A stretch of 61,713 nucleotides of DNA, counting the filler, from Globobulimina sp. (lineage: Eukaryota): assembly GCA_003354225.1 (NCBI GenBank). It is 13 parts of 13 records of this genome, joined end to end, with 100 filler letters (N's around TTAATTAATTAA, not from the genome) between each part and the next. Parts side by side here need not be neighbours in the genome. Positions count along the whole stretch, not along the records: positions 14,285 to 18,943 come from PIVH01001024.1; 12 more parts are not named here. One strand, 5' to 3'. The translations under genes were made by a program, and so were the position numbers. The first letter of the stretch is position 1; every line of letters begins with the position of its first letter. Positions 9,640 to 26,237 of this stretch are shown one piece after another. The notes under the pieces are model-generated. The model searched no databases. It was not told the DNA's origin and saw only the letters and a list, made by a program, of their open reading frames with translations.

Positions 9640-12600
9640 TTAAACATGAAACGCTAAATTATCAGTATCTGATTGAGAATCATCAGTATCTGACTCATCA
9701 TTATCATATATTTGTTGCTCAGCTGTTTCTGCATTAAGTATACTATCATATATATTTCCAGTTATATTCTGTCGTTTTGTTGATTGCAATTCAACATTGC
9801 TCAGACCTTCGTTATTTACCATTTGTTCTCCACCTTCGTCATCATTTAATAATAATGAACTTAAATATTTACGTTTATCGCTCATTAAACCATAATTTAA
9901 TCCTTTATCATCCATTAATTTCTTTAATAAATCATCAAAATCCTCAAAATTGGATTGATTATTATTCATATTCGGATCAAGCACAATCTCATGTTTACCA
10001 TCTAAACTCTTAAATGTCATTATCATACATTCTCGATTAAAATTAAAAAGTGCTTTAAATTTATTTGTTAAAATAATAATATTTTCTTTTTTTGAATATA
10101 ATTTTATTATTCCATTTAGATCCATATTACTGTCAGTTACAGAATGTAAAACATATAATCTTATTGACATTGTATCAACTGTCGTATTTCGGGATATTTC
10201 AATAATTTTGTTATCCGCACCACATCCAAATACATCACAAAGTATCATTGCCATTTTATGTGTTTTATCTTGATTTGAGACAAATTTGTTATGCACATAA
10301 TCATCATCATCCTCATTAACTATTTTTATTTCAAGCCAATAACAAAAATGAGTACGATTGACATTGCTAATTATAGCCACCAATGGCGTACAAATAATGG
10401 ATAAAATGGAGATAACAAATGCAAATGCAATGTTTGCAGAGATGGTGCCAATCGCAGCGGAATACATACACTGTATAAAAATCTGTGGAATGTTTTGTAA
10501 ACAAATGGTAGAAATAATTTTCATTTTATTCATTTTTTTTAATTCATAATTAACTAAACCAGAATTAAAATATTGTAAAGCAAATATATTGGAGGATAGC
10601 AGGAATAAAACAGGATAACAACCGCCGGAAATTATAATTAAAATCATAAACAATACATTTCTATTCTCGAAAAATGAAATTGCACTCTCATTCTCCTCGG
10701 GAATCATTCTGGTTATTTTCCCACCAAAATATATATTCAAATAATAGGGGATTACTACAAATATAAAACATGAAAAGGCATACATTATAAATCCATTTAA
10801 CACCAATTCAATACACACATTAATATCACTTACAAGAAGCACAAATTGTAACACATAAATCATTAATCCATACCATATACAATCAATTTGTTTTACTTTT
10901 GAATGTATGAATGCTAACAAAGAAATAATAAACATAATAATAAGAGTACTAAATAAGAAAATCAATACACTCGAAATAGTAATACCAGTCTCTTCTGACT
11001 CTGAGGCAGCAAATAGAGCTTCAACTTTATCATAACTTTTAATTTCAAATATTAACTGCGACTCAAATTGCTCATTTTGTGCATTTACATTTGATGCAAA
11101 ATTAACAAAATATTTTCTAAATTTATCCGTGCCAATTAATTCAAATTCATCTTTAAATTTGTTATATTTTGTCAATATTTTACAAGCATATTTACTGCAT
11201 TCAATATTACAATGTATTAAAATCCCATCATTTTGTGCATCGACAAATGTTTGATATTGTTCTTCATTGATTTCATTTCTTTGATAGCTTAATAAATCTT
11301 CAATTTCAAAGTTAAAAAATCGATATTGAAGTCCAGTTGCTTCAAAATATGATTGTTCGATAATTTCACTCATTTTGCTCCAAACTTCAACTATATTCTG
11401 CTGCACCAATATTTGAGTATATTCATCTTCTAAATACTTTATCAAATATGTGATGCTAAAAAATGAGTCATACTCCGCTGAGGTAGTTGGATAGCGGCTG
11501 GGTGCTGCAGTTGGTGGAGAGGAAGGAGCCAACGAAGGTGCTAATGACGGAGCTACGGATGGTGCCATACTTGGTGCGACAGACGGAGCGAATGATGGTG
11601 CATTAGAAGGAGGTGTGGTAGGTGCGGCAGACGGAGCTAATGTTGGTGCCAAACTAGGTGCAGCAGTCGGTGGTGAAGTAGGTGATAATGACGGTGCTAA
11701 ACTTGGTGCCAATGAGGGTGCTAAAGTTGGACTGATACTAGGCGCTAAACTTGGTGCAACACTAGGCGCTAAACTCGGATTTAATGATGGGGCCAAAGTT
11801 GGTGCCAATGAAGGTGTTAATGATGGAGCGAGGGAAGGATTCAATGAAGGAGCCAACGAAGGCGCCGATGACGGTGCTAGACTGGGAGCAATAGTCGGTG
11901 CTAACGATGGTGCTGAACTTGGTGCCAATGAGGGTGACAAAGTTGGACTGATACTAGGCGCTAAACTGGGTGCAACACTAGGCGCTAAACTAGGATTTAA
12001 TGATGGAGCGATTGAAGGATTTAATGATGGGGCCAACGTTGGTGCCAATGAAGGTGTTAATGATGGAGCGATGGAAGGATTCAATGAAGGAGCCAAGGAA
12101 GGCGCCAATGACGGTGCTAGACTGGGAGCAATAGTCGGTGATAACGACGGCGCCAAACTTGGTGCCAATGAGGGTGTGAAGCTCGGAGCTAAAGATGGTG
12201 GTGAAGTGGGTGCTAACGAAGGGGCGAACGACGGAGCCAATGACGGTGCGAATGATGGAGCTAAGGAGGGAGCCAATGAAGGGGCTAAGGAAGGAGCTAC
12301 GGAAGGTGCTAAAGTAGGAGCTGACGAAGGAGACACTGTTGGCGGTGTGGTAGGAACTGCTGATGGAGCTAATGATGGAGATAATGATGGTGCCAACGTA
12401 GGAGCTAAAGTGGGTGCTAAAGATGGTGCCAATGATGGGGATAATGATGGGCTTAATGAAGGTGATAATGTAGGATTTGAAGATGGTGCTAAAGTTGGTG
12501 CGTTTGTAGGTGATTTGCTTGGTGCAGCAGTGGGATTTACTGTTGGTGCGGGAGTGGGATTTGTAGTGGGTGCTGGAGTGGGAGCAGGGGTTGGATTTTG

Positions 12601-14111
12601 TGTGGGCGCGGGCGTGGGTGCAGGGGTTGGATTTGTTGTCGGTGCGGGGGTCGGATTTTGTGTGGGTGCCGGGGTTGGTGCAGGTGTCGGAGATGGATAT
12701 TTATTGCAAACAAAGGTAAAGGTGTTAGTACAACTAAAGTCGTCTAATAAAGCTGTGGAGGATGCATAGGCAATGACGCAATCTTCAGTGTAAACTGTAT
12801 TGTCCCAATAAGCACTGCCTTCGCAATAAGTACCTCCCTCCGTACAATCGTCGTGATCCATCCATTGATAAGTACCATACCTTCTCATTCCAATCCATAC
12901 TCGAGAAACCATGGAATATTTTGTTGCTTTTTGAAATCGAAATCTTTCGGTTTTGCCAATTGTTCTTACTGTGGCTAAATGTGTGCCTAGTCTCGAAAGA
13001 CAAGCTGCCTCCGCCTCATCCCACGTTTTCAGTTCATTGTAAAACACATATTCTATCGAACCTAATTAATGTTATTATAGAATTATAAAGTTTAATAAAA
13101 ACAGGCTTCATTTCATGCACATACTTGAAGCAATTTTACAGTTTGAACCGGTACAATCCGCTGTCATATACGTATTGACACCGCAACCAGGCACATATGG
13201 ATAATTGCATTCTCTCACACTGCCAACTAACTGATATCCTAAAATATAAAATATAAAAATAATGTAAGAATATAAATATAATTATATAACAATATATATA
13301 CTAATATACCTTTACTGCAAAGGAATGGAAAATGGCTTAGTGAACAATAATAATCATTCATTAATGGATTAGCGGACACATGAAATACACCACAATATGA
13401 ATTTTCGCCTGTATTCACCCATCGAGTTGCAGTGGGTTCGCAATAATGTCCTCCCTCGGTACACGTTGATCGATCCACCCAGCTCCAATCTGTCTGATAA
13501 TACCTATTCAATCCATGCCAAATTAGGCCAGAATTAAGAGGATTAATAGCTTGTTGATATCGAACTAATTCTGTAATCGATACATCCACTTTAATTGTTG
13601 CCAATTGTGTGCCATAATTATTTTGACAGTACGCATTTGCATCCAACCATGTCATGGTAGTGCTGATATAAATATACTGTCTGGTCGCTATGTAAATATA
13701 TAAAAAATAATTAATAAAAAACATGATGAAACGTTAACGCATTCATTTGTTACATACAGTCAACAGCCTGACAATCGACACCACAGTCAGCTGAGAGATA
13801 AGGATTAACGCCGCACGGCGGTATCCATCCCGAGTCACAATCTCGATATCCAAGTCCAGCATCTGTATGGCACAGACCATCTGTCCCCGGGCATTCGTGA
13901 TAATTTTGTCCTGCGTTGTACGGTATTATTGGTTTTATTTTACTGTTACAAATTAAATAGTAGTTACACACCAAATGTGTCGAATGGAAACGATATTAAT
14001 ATTACAATCAACAAATGATATTGTTTGGTATATACTGTATGTTGTTTTTGTGTGTTTGCGGGTTAAAACTGTATGTTGTTTTTATAACCGTAATAACGTA
14101 CATAAAAACAT
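9640..14111 (-). CDS. Multi-exon adhesion receptor: signal peptide, 2x(Cys module + C-type lectin), mucin stalk, XK-like multi-TM core, cytoplasmic tail
   Basis: GT..AG introns 14035-14101, 13911-13971, 13688-13757, 13239-13309 and 13062-13124 give one open frame. CTLD motifs TW..A..C..LATI/V, VWIG/IWHGL and FVC/FLC; PSLA/PTPA repeats; TM motif QNIPQIFIQ. Confidence 0.8.
11495..12700 (-). repeat. Coding tetrapeptide repeat array (PSLA/PTPA/PTxN) with higher-order duplication
   Basis: About 1.2 kb of degenerate 12-nt units; larger near-identical blocks (e.g. around 11700-11905 and 11917-12140). Confidence 0.9.
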
Positions 14112-14284: not shown

Positions 14285-14378
14285 CAGAATCATATATAAT
14301 ATGACTATAATATGACTATAAAGTATGGAGGAACTTTTCCACCAAATTATAGTCATATATTCAACTATGTACAAGTCG
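14285..14378 (+). repeat. Terminal direct repeat of contig 4, copy 1
   Basis: 94 bp identical to 18850-18943. Confidence 0.97.
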
Positions 14379-14902
14379 GTATGATTTTTTTTGGAGGTAT
14401 GATTTTCCGTTTCAAAGTGATGTGGTGGCCTTTTGACACATTTTTCTTTCGCCATATTGCACAGAGTTTGACGAAATCCGATGAGAATAAAGCGAGAATA
14501 TTGTACTGTATATCGCTAATCACACAGAAGACACATAAATTAAATGAATTTGAATTGTTGACAGGGAATTGGTTTAATAAAAATGAAAGAATGTGTGATT
14601 ATACCGCTGGTGATACCGGACGTTTGTTGTATGACCGGTTATATAATTCTGATTTGCTCTCTTCTTGGAATGAAAGAGCTAACCTATTTGATGAGACTAA
14701 AGGTATTATTATTACCGTTGCGCGCTTCCATATGAAAAAAACCTTGAAGAGTTAAATGGCCACTAGAAAAAAAAGGCCATTGACATTGAATCACTTCTAT
14801 GCTAAAGAGTGTAGTCATATGGTTCTTGATGCTAAGCGACGTAAGTCACGTTCTTTCAAAGGCGCTAAGAAAAAGAAAGAAGATATGTGGAACAACCCAT
14901 GA
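14312..14902 (+). pseudogene. 3' part of a disrupted ORF that spans the contig-4 end-to-start junction
   Basis: Continues ORF 18698 if one copy of the 11-bp duplication ATAATATGACT is removed. An in-frame TAA at 14753-14755 is followed directly by 48 more codons. Confidence 0.55.
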
Positions 14903-15585
14903 GTCGAGCTTGGTTGAAAGTACATAGTACATATAGATGATCATCGAGTGTAGCTCTTATTAAGTTAGTGAGCAGTTAGTGTAGTTAGTAGAAATATTGT
15001 AAAAAATTGAACACACACATTTTAAATTTTTAGTATATTTTTTTTTTGATTAGTAGGTGGTCTAACCCATGAGTCTAGATTGGTTGAAAGTAAACATATG
15101 CTCTGGCATGATGAAAAAATTATATATGAATTGTGGTTCACCAAACGATTTTCCAACGCAACACACCATTATTAATGCATGGTTAGCTTTTGTTAAATTA
15201 CAAGCATGAAAAGTGCTCAAATTCATTAAAAAAATCATCAAAAACAGTAAACTCTCATCAAGATATAGATGAAATATTTTTTGCACATATTGTGATTATT
15301 TTTATTTAAGATTTGTTATTTGTTTGGACAGTGTTTACCACAAAAAAAAGAGAAAGGCTGTATCTTTGACCACCAATCCATAACAATGTTTAATTTCGAT
15401 TCACGTCGATTTTGTTCGTAATATTCTGCTTATTCATGACGTAGTGTGCAGGCCATTAATATTTGGTAGCTGCGTTCAAAGTTTCATAATCCATATTTTT
15501 AGCGACATTCTATTTTTAGGTCTTTACTCTCTGCAGAACCTGGATTAAAAGTATCAACAAAAGCCTTCAAAACAGTGGTTCAATC

Positions 15586-17003
15586 ATGTCCAAACTCTGG
15601 GTTACTGTAATTCAGGTAATGTAATGCTATATTTCAACTATTGTCCATACTAATTTAAACAATACTTTTATTTTTGTTTTGCCAATTTACAGATTTTGAT
15701 CTTATTCTCGTTGGCGTGCACCTATCTGAAGCATTCGCCAAAGCAAAGTGCAACACATTTACAAACGCAAAGTCCAACACTTTCGCCATCAAAATTACCA
15801 ACACACTTGCTAACAGCATTAGATAAACCAAGTTCATCACCAACTGCATCAAAACAAGATGTATTACAAGAGTCTGTAGAAACAATAATTATCGCAATAA
15901 CGAATATTGCTGATGGAGATGCAGTAAATCATATCAATTGTAAATGTGATGAAATAATTTTTTACTGGAGCTTTCCAGAAATCATTGAAAATGGAAGGGA
16001 AGGGATTCATTTTGATAGTTTAGATAATGCAAATTTTGCACAATTCACGACACAGATGGAAATAAAAATTAATTCTACTGGTTGTATTCAAACACAGTAC
16101 ATGGATTGTATTCAAACACAACTTTTAAAATTGTATTCAGGTTTACTTGGAAAAGATATAAGTATTAATGTTTATATCACAGAGAATAGTTTACGCAGAA
16201 GACTGTTTAACAGTTTATGGTATGTTAAAAAATTGATAATGACAGTAGAAGTTATGACACTAGAATATTGTAAAAACACCGGCAATTTAGTCAACAAATC
16301 TCATTATACCACTGTACAGCACCCATCATTCTTCTCACAGTATGACAACTATGCAAATGCCAATTGGAATAATTGGAGAATCACAGTCGGTGGTCGAGAT
16401 TTTGGCAGACTAGTAGGCATTGTTTCTGGGATTGAAGATTTTAGAGCTACCGCATATGACATGTTTTTCGGAAATTTTAGACATGTTTGGACATTTTATG
16501 TTTATAGGAATGACGCATATTTTCCATTATCAGGATTGATTGGAAAAGTAGTTTGTGAGAAGAACCGTGACACACATGGTAAGGGTGTTTGTATTGTTGA
16601 AAACAGCATTACAAGTGTTTATGGGCATACGTGTTTATGGGCATTATATACAGATAAAAACACAATTGATTTTACTTGTTGCTATGACATGTATGATTAC
16701 GAAGCTGTATGTCATCAAAATCATGATCTATTTTTCTTTCATTGGGGTACACACAAAGTTTGGGGATATTACGGGAGTGATTATTGGCGTGATTCTGTTC
16801 CTAAAACAATAGGAGTGAAGAAAGACGCAGCTGGTAAAGGTAAATGTCTTGAAATTACCTGTAATAAGTCGCAAACAATTCAAATGTTATCACTTTCATA
16901 TAAAGAAAAAATTATCAAGTCACCTTATCCATGCAACGGACAACAAACGTGTAGGTTTATGTATGAAGTTGATGTTGTAACATACAGATGTTTGAAAAGT
17001 TGA
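15586..17003 (+). CDS. Secreted Cys-rich protein of unknown function
   Basis: Exon 15586-15615 and phase-0 intron 15616-15692 complete a signal peptide (MSKLWVTVIQILILFSLAC). Short SPT stalk, RRRL site, Cys/aromatic-rich C-terminal domain. Confidence 0.75.
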
Positions 17004-17039
17004 CAGAACATACATTACATTTGAAAAAAAAAAAACACA

Positions 17040-17570
17040 TACATTACTGCCTCTTTCTCTTTCTCTTTCTCTTTCTCTTTCTCTTTCTCTCTCTTTTTGC
17101 TTTTCTGTTCATTAATAATTTGGTTCTCGTCCTCTTGGTCCTTGTCGTCAGTCATTGGCATCAAAGCAGCCAAGTTTGGATCAATTTTTTCGTCTTCTTC
17201 GCGCTTATTATTTTTGGATAAATTCTCTCTTTTCTCTATTTTCTCTTTTTGCAGTTGTTTGTATTTGTTGTTTAATGTCGCTTCGATTCCATCCGAATCC
17301 TCTTCAGAATCTCTCACAATTTTCGACAAAATTCTCCTTTGTTTCTGTGTCTTTTTCGCCGTAATATTCCGCTTAAATCGATTTATCGATGAAGCCTTTG
17401 GTGGTTCGGCCATACAATATCCCCAAATCCTAATGAAATCCCTCTACGCCACGTCGATCGATTTTGTTCGTCATATTTTGCTTTGGGTTGGTATAGATGG
17501 TGGTCCCTTTAATGCTTTGTCCATCCAGCAATGACAGATTATCTCCACCTCATGCAACTCCAGAAAGAAT
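17040..17570 (-). pseudogene. Lys/Glu-rich gene fragment with in-frame stops
   Basis: ORF 17015-17413 extends upstream in frame through TAG and TGA codons and ends at a GTAATG donor-like site with no following exon recognised. Confidence 0.45.
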
Positions 17571-17804
17571 GTTTGTGTTTGTGTTTTTTTGTTATTTTTT
17601 TTTGAAAATTTTCCGAGAATTATAGAAACGTTTTCCGACGATATAAATCAGAGAATTATAGAAACGTTTTCTATCTCCATTTTTATTGATAATGTATCAC
17701 CACTTTTTAAATCAAGCGTTGTTGTGCTTGCTACATCTAAATCTGTCCAATATTCTGTATTATATGAGTGCTGTGCCGCATCACTCCCAAATGCACATGA
17801 TTCA

Positions 17805-18015
17805 AGATGCGGCAAAATGTCGATTAACTGCACGATGCTATCAAAGCCGCGCAATACGCGCAAGATTTTCAGCTCTCGCAATAAGCGCTTGGAGTCGATG
17901 CGGTTGTGGAATATCTTCAATATCTTCTTTATCGCTACTTTCTTGCCGCTCGCCGTATGTCTGCCCTCTGCCACATAGCCATACGCGCCGTGGCCTAAAT
18001 GGCAATATTTTTGTA
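17805..18015 (-). pseudogene. MAP kinase N-lobe fragment (subdomains I-IV only)
   Basis: LGHGAYGYVAEG..KKVAIKKI..KRLLRELKILRVL..IVQLIDILP, then an abrupt switch to unrelated sequence. No HRD, DFG or TxY motif. Locally higher GC. Confidence 0.85.
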
Positions 18016-18377
18016 CCAATAACAGTGACAAAGTTGTATTTTCACCAGATATTAATGACAATGACAATTATCAAACAGAAATCGATTTATTGAAATTTGA
18101 TTACAATACGATCAAACACGCAAGTTATTGCAATTTATTGCAATTTATTGCAATTAAGGATACCTAGGTCCTAGGTCTCGATCAATTGTTATTGCGCAAT
18201 ATAAGAACAACCCCGAATAGAGCCATGAACAAAATGGCTTATTTAAGCTGGTTTTAACCTTTATGAGGTGTGAAATTAATTAGTCATAAAAAGAAGATAA
18301 TAATAAAACAAATTTGCCAATCATAATTACATTAATAGTTAATAATAATATACATATACGTTTTTTAATAACACTGA

Positions 18378-18707
18378 TCAATATAAATCTGGAGCAGTTT
18401 GTATTTCCCATGTTGTTGTTGTTGTTGTTTGTGGGTTATTTGCAATATCAATTCCAGAGACAGTTAAACATTGAATAATTATATAGAAAAAGGAAAAAAT
18501 AGCGATAACGTAAAATGTTAATCTGAGATGATTTATCATTGCATACAAACCAATAATACATAACACTAACTTTCCAAACGATGTCCAATTAATAATATGC
18601 TTCAATTGTGGGGAGGTTGAAGCCCATTGGATTACAAATCCAATAAACACTGCAACACAAACAAACGGAAACAAAACAGCACAAATAAACGACCACAATG
18701 TTTCCAA
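18378..18707 (-). pseudogene. Small 3-TM protein fragment lacking an ATG start
   Basis: Hydrophobic ORF begins at TTG directly after a stop and overlaps the + strand ORF at 18698. Confidence 0.4.
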
Positions 18708-18849
18708 TTATTGATTGTAATGAGAATGGAAATGATATCGATTCTCCTTCAAAATTAGTAATGAATACAATTGAGACATTAAAATTTAATCATTTAAAAT
18801 TGTCGCAAATAAATATTTCCCAATGTACAGGGTTAACTCCTATAAGACG

Positions 18850-18943
18850 CAGAATCATATATAATATGACTATAATATGACTATAAAGTATGGAGGAACT
18901 TTTCCACCAAATTATAGTCATATATTCAACTATGTACAAGTCG
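18850..18943 (+). repeat. Terminal direct repeat of contig 4, copy 2
   Basis: 94 bp identical to 14285-14378. Confidence 0.97.
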
Positions 18944-24785: not shown

Positions 24786-26237
24786 ATGTGGCGTTTACCA
24801 ACAAAGATATTTTTTCGTGAGAGTGGATTGTTACAATTACCAGAAATAATTCAACAAAACATACTTCCAAAAGTATCATCAGCACTGATTGTGACAGATC
24901 ACAAATTTAAGACAAACACAACATGGATAGATAATGTCTCAGAAACATTACAACAAACATTAGAATGCAATGTCAATATCTATGACTCCGCCCCTATTAA
25001 CCCTCGAATTGAAACAGTTGATGAAATCACAGCTATTGCCTTGGAACATCAATCAGATATTATAATAAGTATAGGTGGCGGCAGTTCAATTGATGCTGGA
25101 AAGGCAGCAGCAATGTATGTATCGCCAGAAAATAATAATAGAAAATTATCAGCATCAAAAACATTCGGTGTCCCATCAAAAAATGGATCGTTGCCATTTA
25201 TTGCTGTTCCAAGTACCTGCGGTACAGGCTCGGAAGTTACATGGGTCTCTGTGCTGAATGATGCTAATATTAAACGCAAAATATCAATAAAAGGTGAACC
25301 TATTCGCTCCATGCTCACAGTTTGCGAAAATTAAGCATGTCTTCAGTCGAAAATCTTTTTTTGTTTGCAAACGAAAACTGTTAATTTAAACATTAATTCT
25401 AATTTTGTAATGGTTATAATTTGCAAACAAAAATATATAATAAACCATGCAAACAATCAAAAAAAAACTCATTTGTATAAAGGTGAAAGTATGTTTCCAA
25501 CAGCAGCCATAATTGATAGTGATTTATTGAAAACATTACCAATGAATTTAATTGCCTGGACCTCAATGGATGCGTTGACTCACGCTTTGGAAGCGTATAC
25601 ATGCAATTGTGGCAATGAAATATCTGACCAATTTGCTATACGTGCCATAGATTTAATTTTCGAATATCTTCCCCGGGCCGTAAATAAAATAAAACAAGAT
25701 AGATTTGCGAGGTATTATGTAGCTATGGCCTCAACATACGCAGGAATGGCATTTGGTAATGCAGACGTTTGCGCAGTGCATTGTTTGTCTGAAACATTGG
25801 GCGGTACATATGACATAGCACACGGTTTAGCAAACAGTTCAATTTTATATTGTACCATGAAATATCACCAACCATTTATAAAAGATAAATTAATTGAATT
25901 ATGTAAGAAAATAGAAATTGAAAAGAAAATGATTTACAATATGTTAGTGAATGAATATGATGGCGGACTGGTTGGATTACAAAAATTAAATGGTGATGAT
26001 TTATTTTTATTATGTTTGGATAGATTGAGGTCGGAAATTGGACATGTTTTAAAATCATTTAATGAGTTGAATGTAAATACAAATGATTGGGAGTATATTG
26101 CAAAAGAATGTGTTGTAAATGGAAGTAATAACTCCAATCCACAGGAAATGAAGGAAGAGAATTATATTGAATTGTTAACTATGCTACAAAATGATAGCAT
26201 TACATATATAAAAAATCCTTGTCATCAACATATGTAA
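24786..26237 (+). CDS. Iron-containing (type III) alcohol dehydrogenase
   Basis: GGGSSIDAGK, PSTCGTGSEVT, DALTHALE, VH, HGLAN. Intron 25294-25482 restores KG|ESMFP. Confidence 0.93.

Follow-up and report, generated by a model that had tools for sequence, protein, structure and literature searches.

Pack-MULEs and Helitrons are non-autonomous transposons that carry fragments of genes. Helitrons are recognised by a 5' TC, a 3' CTRR about 10 nt past a hairpin, and RepHel, whereas elements of the LTR type have repeats with TG..CA ends, a primer-binding site and a polypurine tract, together with flanks outside the repeats. Host DNA lying between short direct repeats is also known from extrachromosomal circular DNA (eccDNA) and from tandem amplicons, for example the eccDNA of yeast and plants, and recombination between direct repeats is established as a source of eccDNA generally. 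In addition, contigs bounded by repeats are an already known source of false 'circular' calls in de Bruijn assemblies. Here we compare with these systems a contig of Globobulimina sp. (GCA_003354225.1) with identical ends, which an earlier note had interpreted as a circle, or a tandemly amplified unit, made of pieces of host genes. The host origin of these pieces is upheld, by the composition of the DNA and by a MAPK-like fragment, but the circular reading is weakened, since the sequence at the junction occurs as a module in a second record and the overlap of the ends lies at the centre of that module.

The material consists of 13 contigs (4662 to 4647 bp each) separated by N spacers, and the window is the whole joined stretch of 61,713 nucleotides that was analysed. 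Direct comparison of the ends of contig 4 (PIVH01001024.1, positions 14285-18943, 4659 bp) bore out the claim that its first 94 bases equal its last 94, with no match at 95, which implies a unit of 4565 bp. The claim that the other 12 contigs lack such an overlap also held. A scan for direct end overlaps of at least 10 nt gave none in all 12, and blastn of head against tail gave no match in 11 of them and a 12-nt inverted match only in contig 6. Terminal inverted repeats of at least 8 nt were likewise absent from the 12, contig 4 has no terminal inverted repeat either, and telomere-like or inverted ends, looked for on every one of the 13 contigs, were not found. Within the window neither the 94-mer nor its 20- to 40-mers recur, and no 25-mer is common to any two contigs. 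The features of contig 4 are collected in Table 1.

Table 1. Features of contig 4, in positions of the window.
Feature	Position	Strand	Remarks
94-nt end overlap, start copy	14285-14378		Identical to 18850-18943
11-nt tandem repeat TATAATATGAC, 2.5 copies	14295-14321	+	Puts the two adjoining ORFs in separate frames; also present in L001
Imperfect 49-nt palindrome	14310-14358		About 24 nt of related sequence on either side of its centre, which is nt 51 of the 94-mer
ORF, 147 codons	14312-14755	+	Begins in M; no known family; codon score 0.13
Right arm of M, at contig start	14379-14402	+	blastn to L001; two GGTATGAT motifs
Two 39-nt copies, 85% identical	14884-15092		170 nt apart; contig 4 only
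Orphan secreted-type Cys-rich gene	15586-17003	+	Exon 1 15586-15615, intron 15616-15692, exon 2 15693-17003
K/E-rich ORF, 132 codons	17015-17413	-	Own ATG (17413) and stop; codon score 0.36; no Pfam family
36-nt spaced duplication	17612-17671		One copy bears the TGA that closes the kinase ORF
MAPK-like kinase fragment, 64 codons	17810-18001	-	GxGxxG loop to end of strand beta-5; in ATG-less ORF 17651-18067
Membrane-type ORF, 109 codons	18381-18707	-	No ATG at start; first in-frame ATG is codon 57; no Pfam family
ORF, 60 codons	18698-18880	+	Enters M; last 17 codons and TGA in M; codon score 0.21
Left arm of M, at contig end	18822-18849	+	blastn to L001; exact from 18825
94-nt end overlap, end copy	18850-18943		Identical to 14285-14378

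A second context for these ends came from a scan of contigs seeded with the palindrome of the overlap alone. The palindrome is matched exactly in PIVX01000655.1 (L001, 592 bp), a public record other than that of contig 4. By blastn, positions 335-478 of L001 correspond to 18822-18849 followed by 14285-14402, that is, to sequence spanning the junction from contig end to contig start, with 138 of 146 positions identical (95%) and uninterrupted identity over 39 nt from 18825 and over 78 nt from 14300. The shared module, M, is about 145 nt long and consists of about 25 nt, the 94-mer at its centre, and 24 nt; it is continuous across the junction. Outside M, the flanks of L001 (334 nt on the left and 114 nt on the right) gave only chance-level and poly-T low-complexity matches to contig 4. 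L001 is itself host-type DNA, with a GC content of 0.32 and, outside M, an ORF with a codon score of 0.32, against 0.22 +/- 0.13 in in-frame host sequence. A 94-mer dispersed with other flanks was what the earlier note had named as evidence against its reading, and in substance L001 provides it: in this other record 92 of the 94 bases recur together with about 25 nt to either side, all set between unrelated flanks. At 95% and not 100% identity, the copy in L001 cannot itself be the one collapsed with that of contig 4. An exact second copy is absent from the other 12 contigs, which together amount to only about 57 kb.

M has an internal structure of its own. Its palindrome forms the strongest predicted hairpin of the unit (DNA fold of -14.1 kcal/mol, ranking about 21 among 5954 80-nt windows over the whole window), and the symmetry stops at the limits of the palindrome, with none further out. 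The motif RTATGAYT has six distinct sites within about 120 nt of M, whereas the ~60-kb window has 16 outside M, counting both strands. M is a cluster of six such motifs with a palindrome at its centre, and any ORF that lies upstream of it would take its final 17 codons and its stop from M. When the upstream ORFs of contig 4 and L001 are compared at the protein level, only the last 19 residues align, 16 of them identical, and 17 of the 19 lie within M.

A claim that failed concerns the coding sequence at the junction. Instead of a single ORF reading across it from 18698 to 14755, there are two ORFs in different frames that overlap by 4 nt, the first of which stops at a TGA within the overlap. 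A single frame of 203 codons is obtained only when one copy of the 11-nt repeat is omitted. That the 11-nt duplication recently broke a gene of 203 codons was considered and dropped, since L001 has both the duplication and the stop, and there the downstream frame ends after 26 codons. For this downstream ORF of contig 4, an Atlas search returned matches of 0.90 or below with low recognition, which we took as noise, and its AF2 single-sequence model (pLDDT 47) was unfit for fold comparison.

Identical ends of this kind mean that M is present at both ends of the contig, not that the DNA closes on itself. A de Bruijn assembler halts a contig k bases into a repeat at either side, and where a direct repeat of length r lies at both ends the two overhangs have the central 2k-r bases in common, here 94. 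The simplest genome to fit would be linear, namely, flank, M, 4.4 kb, M, flank, with both ends of contig 4 stopping within copies of a short dispersed module of about 145 nt. In simulations, a linear arrangement flank-R-X-R-flank gave contig 4 base for base with every tested r and k for which 2k-r=94, including r=144 and k=119. The position of the overlap bears on the same question: when a loop of 4565 nt is cut at random, the overlap falls inside M at 53 of 4565 positions (1.2%), and an overlap centred in M is expected of a repeat-bounded de Bruijn contig, not of a randomly cut isolated loop. We consider it probable, if by no means secure, that contig 4 is an ordinary assembly break at a dispersed repeat, from a linear locus, with its ends inside copies of M. 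For this we infer that the genome has a second exact copy of M, that k would be about 119 should R be M, and that the locus is linear.

The same simulations leave some room for loops. Isolated circles gave an overlap equal to k, and an isolated loop yields contig 4 exactly if the node length is 94 (k=95 where the contigs of an assembler overlap by k-1); a real head-to-tail unit with one further copy of M elsewhere fits the same assembly graph. Contig 4 could accordingly represent a 4565-bp unit repeated head to tail in the chromosome, the copies of which collapsed to a loop that is either isolated (node length 94) or touches other copies of M, since the isolated circle and the tandem array with a separate M locus each reproduce it. 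This reading gains from the adjacency of end, M and start, which is a genuine conserved order because M is contiguous in L001, from the small tandem duplications common on contig 4, and from the nearest relatives of its kinase fragment, which come from sequence sets of Foraminifera, a group with endoreplication. Passages of PMC10936158 describe endoreplication in Foraminifera, possibly with partial amplification. However, the array requires an unusual k or another exact copy of M elsewhere, and an isolated loop would have its overlap centred in M by chance in about 1% of cases; we hold it to be unlikely, though it deserves to be kept in view.

Both objections apply equally to an extrachromosomal circle of 4565 bp, formed for instance by recombination of two direct copies of M and enriched if the DNA had been amplified by methods prone to rolling circles. 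The identical ends of the contig agree with such a circle, direct repeats of about 145 nt at a distance of 4.4 kb lend themselves to such recombination, and host-type content with no replication genes suits eccDNA more than a plasmid or a virus. But contig 4 bears no mark of a replicon: it has no Rep gene, and its single match to TANTATTAC is no more than chance would give (7 matches in the window where 4.6 are expected) and lies outside the hairpin of M. Overall, we regard eccDNA as quite improbable. That the loop is real in one form or the other, recombination between copies of M having made a 4565-bp circle or a head-to-tail amplicon of host DNA, is in our judgement a doubtful proposition. 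The lineage would be foraminifer-like by its nearest kinase relatives, and such lineages are known for massive endoreplication and suspected of amplifying part of the genome. Were it true, M would be a module for recombination or amplification that also gives neighbouring ORFs a C-terminal tail and a stop codon, and the contig would be a rare case of segmental amplification at the sequence level in a lineage whose amplification has so far been deduced mainly from microscopy and PCR.

The DNA between the copies of M is of the host type. In tetranucleotide make-up contig 4 falls within the norm of the other 12 contigs, and it carries introns of the spliceosomal kind. The intact intron-containing gene for a secreted protein described earlier was recovered in our exon/intron model: exon 1 encodes MSKLWVTVIQ and is followed by a 77-nt intron with GT..AG ends. 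Among 69 ORFs of at least 35 aa, only the kinase piece exceeded the curated Pfam cut-off; Pfam gave no reverse transcriptase and, as had been noted before, no replicase, capsid or transposase. That contig 4 is host-type DNA is supported, and it is probably ordinary nuclear DNA of an AT-rich, gene-dense protist host with short introns.

These observations bring the idea of a small host plasmid or a circular host virus close to refutation. Only the identical ends and the size speak for it, whereas the 69 ORFs gave no match to Rep, capsid or partition families; the spliceosomal intron, the codon usage and the tetranucleotide make-up are those of the host; and collections of plasmid and phage DNA gave no match. 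For a rolling-circle replicon in particular, such as a CRESS virus or plasmid, the 69 ORFs include no Rep family and the hairpin of M contains no TANTATTAC. The palindrome had been considered as an origin of replication and was dropped, there being no Rep gene and the nonanucleotide matching only at chance level.

The remaining content is sparse. ORFs of at least 200 aa make up 0.29 of contig 4, the lowest value of the 13 contigs, against 0.41-0.92 in the others, and neither an Rfam family nor a tRNA was found in the window. Of 2474 candidates that share words with the orphan protein (436 aa) not one passed, and 1.84 billion representatives yielded no hit to it; it has no Pfam family, an Atlas search gave no usable match, and its AF2 single-sequence model (pLDDT 37) was too poor for fold comparison. 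Among the pieces that the earlier note had called broken, the N-lobe of a MAPK and the membrane-type ORF without an ATG stand as described, and relatives of the latter, looked for among longer proteins, were not found; the K/E-rich piece, however, has its own start and stop codons and may be a 5' exon, to judge from GTAATG just ahead of its end. Small tandem duplications are frequent on contig 4. Donor loci were searched for by blastn and tblastn against the other 12 contigs, and the best match reached only E 0.005 over 34 nt.

The kinase piece matches Pfam Pkinase at positions 4-71 of 263 (E 6.6e-10) and is 91% identical to residues 312-375 of a kinase of 722 residues, with sharp breakpoints inside coding sequence. 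In detail, P0001 and P0006, from EukProt sets labelled Bolivina argentea and Nonionella stella, agree with it at 58 of 64 residues; the unnamed ENA proteins P0003 and P0002 are 84-86% identical to it, and P0004, likewise an unnamed ENA protein, is 83% identical in the search table. At three positions that are invariant in the homologues the piece deviates. GC reaches 0.475 locally, compared with about 0.33 overall. Using tblastn with five full or partial homologues, the rest of the gene was not found on contig 4, except for a low-identity extension seen with P0004 only (44% over 170 columns). Comparison with the homologues thus supports the piece as a true gene fragment, of 64 out of about 720 residues.

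A fragment broken inside coding sequence is also what a non-autonomous mobile element with captured gene fragments might contain, M being either the direct repeat at its termini or its two ends joined together. M is discrete, with sharp borders in two contexts, and its dense cluster of short motifs in both orientations resembles arrays of protein-binding sites. In the two copies of M compared, the palindrome might represent two ends of about 24 nt joined back to back, as for a TIR transposon of the Pack type. Yet those two contexts are all that is known for M, and neither a target-site duplication nor a terminal inverted repeat was seen at its borders there. As to Helitrons, CTRR does not follow the hairpin on either strand, and there is no helicase or Rep. 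As to LTR-type elements (TRIM or LARD), the 94-mer begins with CAG and ends with TCG instead of having TG..CA ends, no purine tract precedes 18850, and no tRNA-complementary site, as expected of a primer-binding site, follows 14378. Since Pfam also revealed no transposase, RepHel or reverse transcriptase in the 69 ORFs, we consider a mobile element very improbable.

Returning to the linear, repeat-bounded locus, its 4.4-kb interior would be a gene-poor, decaying patch, with one intact lineage-specific gene for a secreted protein, a 64-codon MAPK-like relic, two or three short unassigned ORFs, and a number of small tandem duplications. Such a patch would illustrate the decay and reshuffling of a protist genome, through the kinase relic, the tandem duplications, and a module M common to unrelated ORFs. 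Beyond this locus, identical ends that are shorter than the k of the assembler and centred in a repeat point to a repeat-bounded contig instead of a circle, and the 2k-r rule separates the two when k is known.

Compared with the MAPK-like kinases P0001-P0006, which have a long N-terminal extension, contig 4 holds residues 312-375 of 722 only, and the HRD, the DFG and the activation loop with TxY of a complete MAPK catalytic domain are missing from its piece. Like Pack-MULEs and Helitrons, it has a gene fragment (64 of about 720 codons) between repeat copies and a hairpin in the repeat; unlike them, it shows no terminal inverted repeats, target-site duplication, 5' TC or 3' CTRR, or partner enzyme. 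With eccDNA and tandem amplicons that arise between short direct repeats it shares host-derived content, the lack of replication genes, and borders formed by direct repeats, but its junction is a pre-existing repeat module, unlike the novel join of such molecules. Finally, contig 4 resembles the repeat-bounded contigs of de Bruijn assemblies in that its ends lie within a repeat and its identical stretch, of the length 2k-r, is centred there, the exact second copy and the value of k being those that we infer.

The 13 contigs of the window are ordered by length, from 4662 to 4647 bp, with N spacers between them. The fourth (contig 4, 14285-18943, 4659 bp) begins and ends with the same 94 bases, and since identity stops there, the unit measures 4565 bp. 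This exact match, described in an earlier note, was recovered in full, as was the statement that the other 12 contigs lack such an overlap: none of these has a direct end overlap of at least 10 nt or a terminal inverted repeat of at least 8 nt, and comparison of head with tail by blastn gave no match in 11 of the 12 and one 12-nt inverted match only in contig 6. The 94-mer and all its 20-mers are absent from the rest of the window, and no 25-mer is common to any pair of contigs. The identical ends are real, far beyond chance.

A scan of public genome contigs with a 49-nt palindrome gave one exact match, in PIVX01000655.1 (L001, 592 bp), whose title names a gammaproteobacterial MAG; the surrounding repeat of about 145 nt, termed M, was thus found by seeding from the overlap. 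Positions 335-478 of L001 align to 18822-18849 followed by 14285-14402, unbroken over the end-to-start junction of contig 4 (138/146 identical). This copy, 95% identical rather than exact and in a separate record, matches the repeat with other flanks that the earlier note had set against its own proposal of a circle or tandem unit made of host gene pieces. The flanks of L001 (334 nt left, 114 nt right) share only chance-level and poly-T low-complexity matches with contig 4, and only the last 19 residues of the upstream ORFs align (16/19 identical). M is a discrete module present in at least two contexts, the 94-mer being flanked in it by arms of about 25 nt (left) and 24 nt (right). RTATGAYT motifs occur six times in about 120 nt of M and 16 times in all the remaining window.

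L001 is probably host-type DNA mis-binned into the MAG: its GC is 0.32, and its ORF outside M, which has no Pfam family, has a host codon score of 0.32, against -0.13 for the antisense ORF. Along its length (1-592) we observed a poly-T end and an acidic/NLS-like ORF of eukaryotic style, the codon usage of which is host-like.

In a de Bruijn graph, when a repeat R of length r (r no shorter than k) bounds a unitig on both sides, the unitig starts with the final k bases of R, runs through the interior and stops after the first k bases of R; its two ends then share the central 2k-r bases of R. First, a simulated linear locus (flank-R-X-R-flank, X being the interior) built from real sequence returned contig 4 base for base at all tested r/k pairs with 2k-r=94, namely, 94/94, 104/99, 142/118, 144/119, 146/120, 160/127 and 188/141; if R is M as bounded by L001, k would be about 119. 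Second, a simulated isolated circle gave an overlap equal to k, so that an isolated loop is possible at a node length of 94; an arbitrary cut of such a loop, however, places the overlap inside M at only 53 of 4565 positions (1.2%), while centring in M is obligatory for a repeat-bounded contig. Third, a simulated tandem array with a separate M locus yielded a contig no different from that of the linear two-copy locus. We favour, with somewhat better than even confidence, the reading that contig 4 is a stretch of ordinary, decaying host DNA whose ends were set by a repeat. As for a real head-to-tail arrangement, foraminifera are reported to endoreplicate and perhaps amplify parts of their genome (PMC10936158), and direct M copies spaced 4.4 kb apart would lend themselves well to either an array or a circle; nothing in the sequence of contig 4 demonstrates amplification, however, and we regard a tandem array as unlikely and a circle as more unlikely still.

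The ORF that the earlier note had read across the junction (18698 to 14755) resolves into two ORFs in different frames (see table), with an 11-nt tandem repeat, TATAATATGAC (2.5 copies), between them. Omission of one copy in silico yields a single 203-codon frame, which probably explains the earlier reading. A recent frameshift by this duplication was rejected: L001 has the same duplication and TGA, and the downstream frame in L001 closes after 26 codons, so the duplication is old and the 203-codon idea is weakened. The overlap contains ATATGACTATAA three times, two in tandem and one inverted, and forms a hairpin stronger than any other in the unit (-14.1 kcal/mol, about 21st among 5954 80-nt windows); the palindrome arms hold related sequence about 24 nt each side of the centre and no further.

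Features of contig 4, in window positions
Feature	Position	Strand	Remarks
Downstream junction ORF	14312-14755	+	ATG four bases before end of upstream ORF, other frame
Secreted-type orphan gene, exon 1	15586-15615	+	encodes MSKLWVTVIQ
Secreted-type orphan gene, intron	15616-15692	+	GTAATG, TACTAAT branch-like site, CAG
Secreted-type orphan gene, exon 2	15693-17003	+	
K/E-rich ORF	17413 to 17015	-	132 codons, ATG and stop present
Kinase-fragment ORF	17651-18067	-	no ATG ahead of kinase part
Kinase homology	17810-18001	-	tblastn; common part exactly 64 residues
Membrane-type ORF	18707 to 18381	-	first in-frame ATG is codon 57
Upstream junction ORF	18698-18880	+	TGA inside overlap

The content of contig 4 is largely as the earlier note described it, a secreted-type gene with an intron plus broken pieces. 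Scored per codon with a model built from 31 long ORFs of the other contigs, the pieces reach 0.06-0.36, compared with 0.22 +/- 0.13 for in-frame host sequence and about -0.05 to 0.0 for open antisense ORFs. ORFs of at least 200 aa cover 0.29 of contig 4, the lowest share (others 0.41-0.92). The orphan protein has an N-terminus that by eye looks signal-peptide-like; none of 2474 word-sharing candidates passed as relatives, 1.84 billion representatives gave no hits, the Atlas yielded no relative and Pfam no family, and the AF2 model (pLDDT 37) was unusable. A GTAATG near the end of the K/E-rich ORF may be a splice donor, and a search with the membrane-type ORF gave no relatives. Two repeat pairs occur in contig 4 only (14884-14922/15054-15092, 39 nt, 85% identity; 15406-15431/17458-17483, 26 nt, 92%); read on the minus strand, both members of a pair give one short peptide (TFNQxRLMG and KQNxTNKID, respectively), which gives the impression of coding-sequence scraps that were duplicated.

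Among the 69 ORFs of at least 35 aa, only the kinase passed the Pfam cut-off, one low-complexity ORF having two sub-threshold hits; no mobility or replication gene was found, in line with the reported lack of replicase, capsid and transposase, and an autonomous replicon is accordingly most improbable. We consider a cargo-carrying mobile element very unlikely: no such enzyme was found, and no LTR or Helitron hallmarks and no target-site duplication are readable at the M borders. The contig ends have no terminal inverted repeat, although the M palindrome may represent a pair of ends joined back to back.

The kinase ORF matches positions 4-71 of 263 of Pfam Pkinase (E 6.6e-10); its nearest solved relatives are MAP kinases, and five relatives were found among longer proteins. 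By tblastn, the fragment is identical to P0001 at 58/64 residues, and to P0002, P0003 and P0005 at 86%, 84% and 86% (P0005 over 35 residues); P0004, 83% in the protein search, gave one long stretch at 44%. In P0006 (722 residues), 58/64 are identical to residues 312-375. Homology breaks off sharply at both ends. In addition, tblastn found other parts of the parent on contig 4 only as the low-identity P0004 extension (44% over 170 columns), and elsewhere in the window only weak hits to an unrelated contig 5 kinase. The fragment has three changes at positions invariant across all aligned homologues, and a GC of 0.475 against about 0.33 around it. Since P0003 and P0004 are single predicted proteins from contigs measuring 4.1 and 2.8 kb, the parent gene seems to be poor in introns or free of them, and the breakpoints would fall within coding sequence. 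EukProt labels P0001 as Bolivina argentea and P0006 as Nonionella stella, two foraminifera of different genera; at 98% identity over 460 aligned columns, the organism behind these labels is uncertain, and one organism's transcript seems to be in both sets, via cross-contamination or a shared associate.

Around the fragment, a 24-nt sequence is present in two copies spaced 36 nt apart (17612-17671, 96% identity), with the TGA closing the kinase ORF in one copy and GGA in the other. Upstream on the minus strand, where contig 4 is richest in AT, a 10-nt tandem repeat, GCAATTTATT (18120-18177, 3.6 copies), directly adjoins a CCTAGGTCCTAGG palindrome.

Contig 4 resembles its companions: GC is 30-38% in all 13 contigs, and its tetranucleotide distance to the others is 0.028 (0.025-0.035 among them). 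On the other contigs, 16 of 37 long ORFs match eukaryote-typical Pfam families, including C-type lectin, PT repeats, Ras, Arf, kinase, arginine kinase, Kelch, SAM/MATH and PH/C2. Contig 3 carries a 1141-codon ORF (9643-13065) that combines a C-type lectin domain with long PT-type repeats; where the repeats lie, the other strand also has an open frame, of 424 codons. A further lectin ORF spans 13242-13733. On contig 6 (24762-26234), a TAA at 25332-25334 divides an iron-type alcohol dehydrogenase into two ORFs that share a frame, and the C-terminal domain continues only after a further stretch of about 70 residues without a match; this is probably an unannotated intron, although the gene may be a pseudogene. 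The introns, of 77 nt on contig 4 and about 66 nt on contig 5, are short and bounded by GT..AG, and these figures resemble the table entry in PMC13746701 for the foraminifer Reticulomyxa filosa, which lists 2 introns to a gene, an intron length of 87 nt and a repeat share of 30%.
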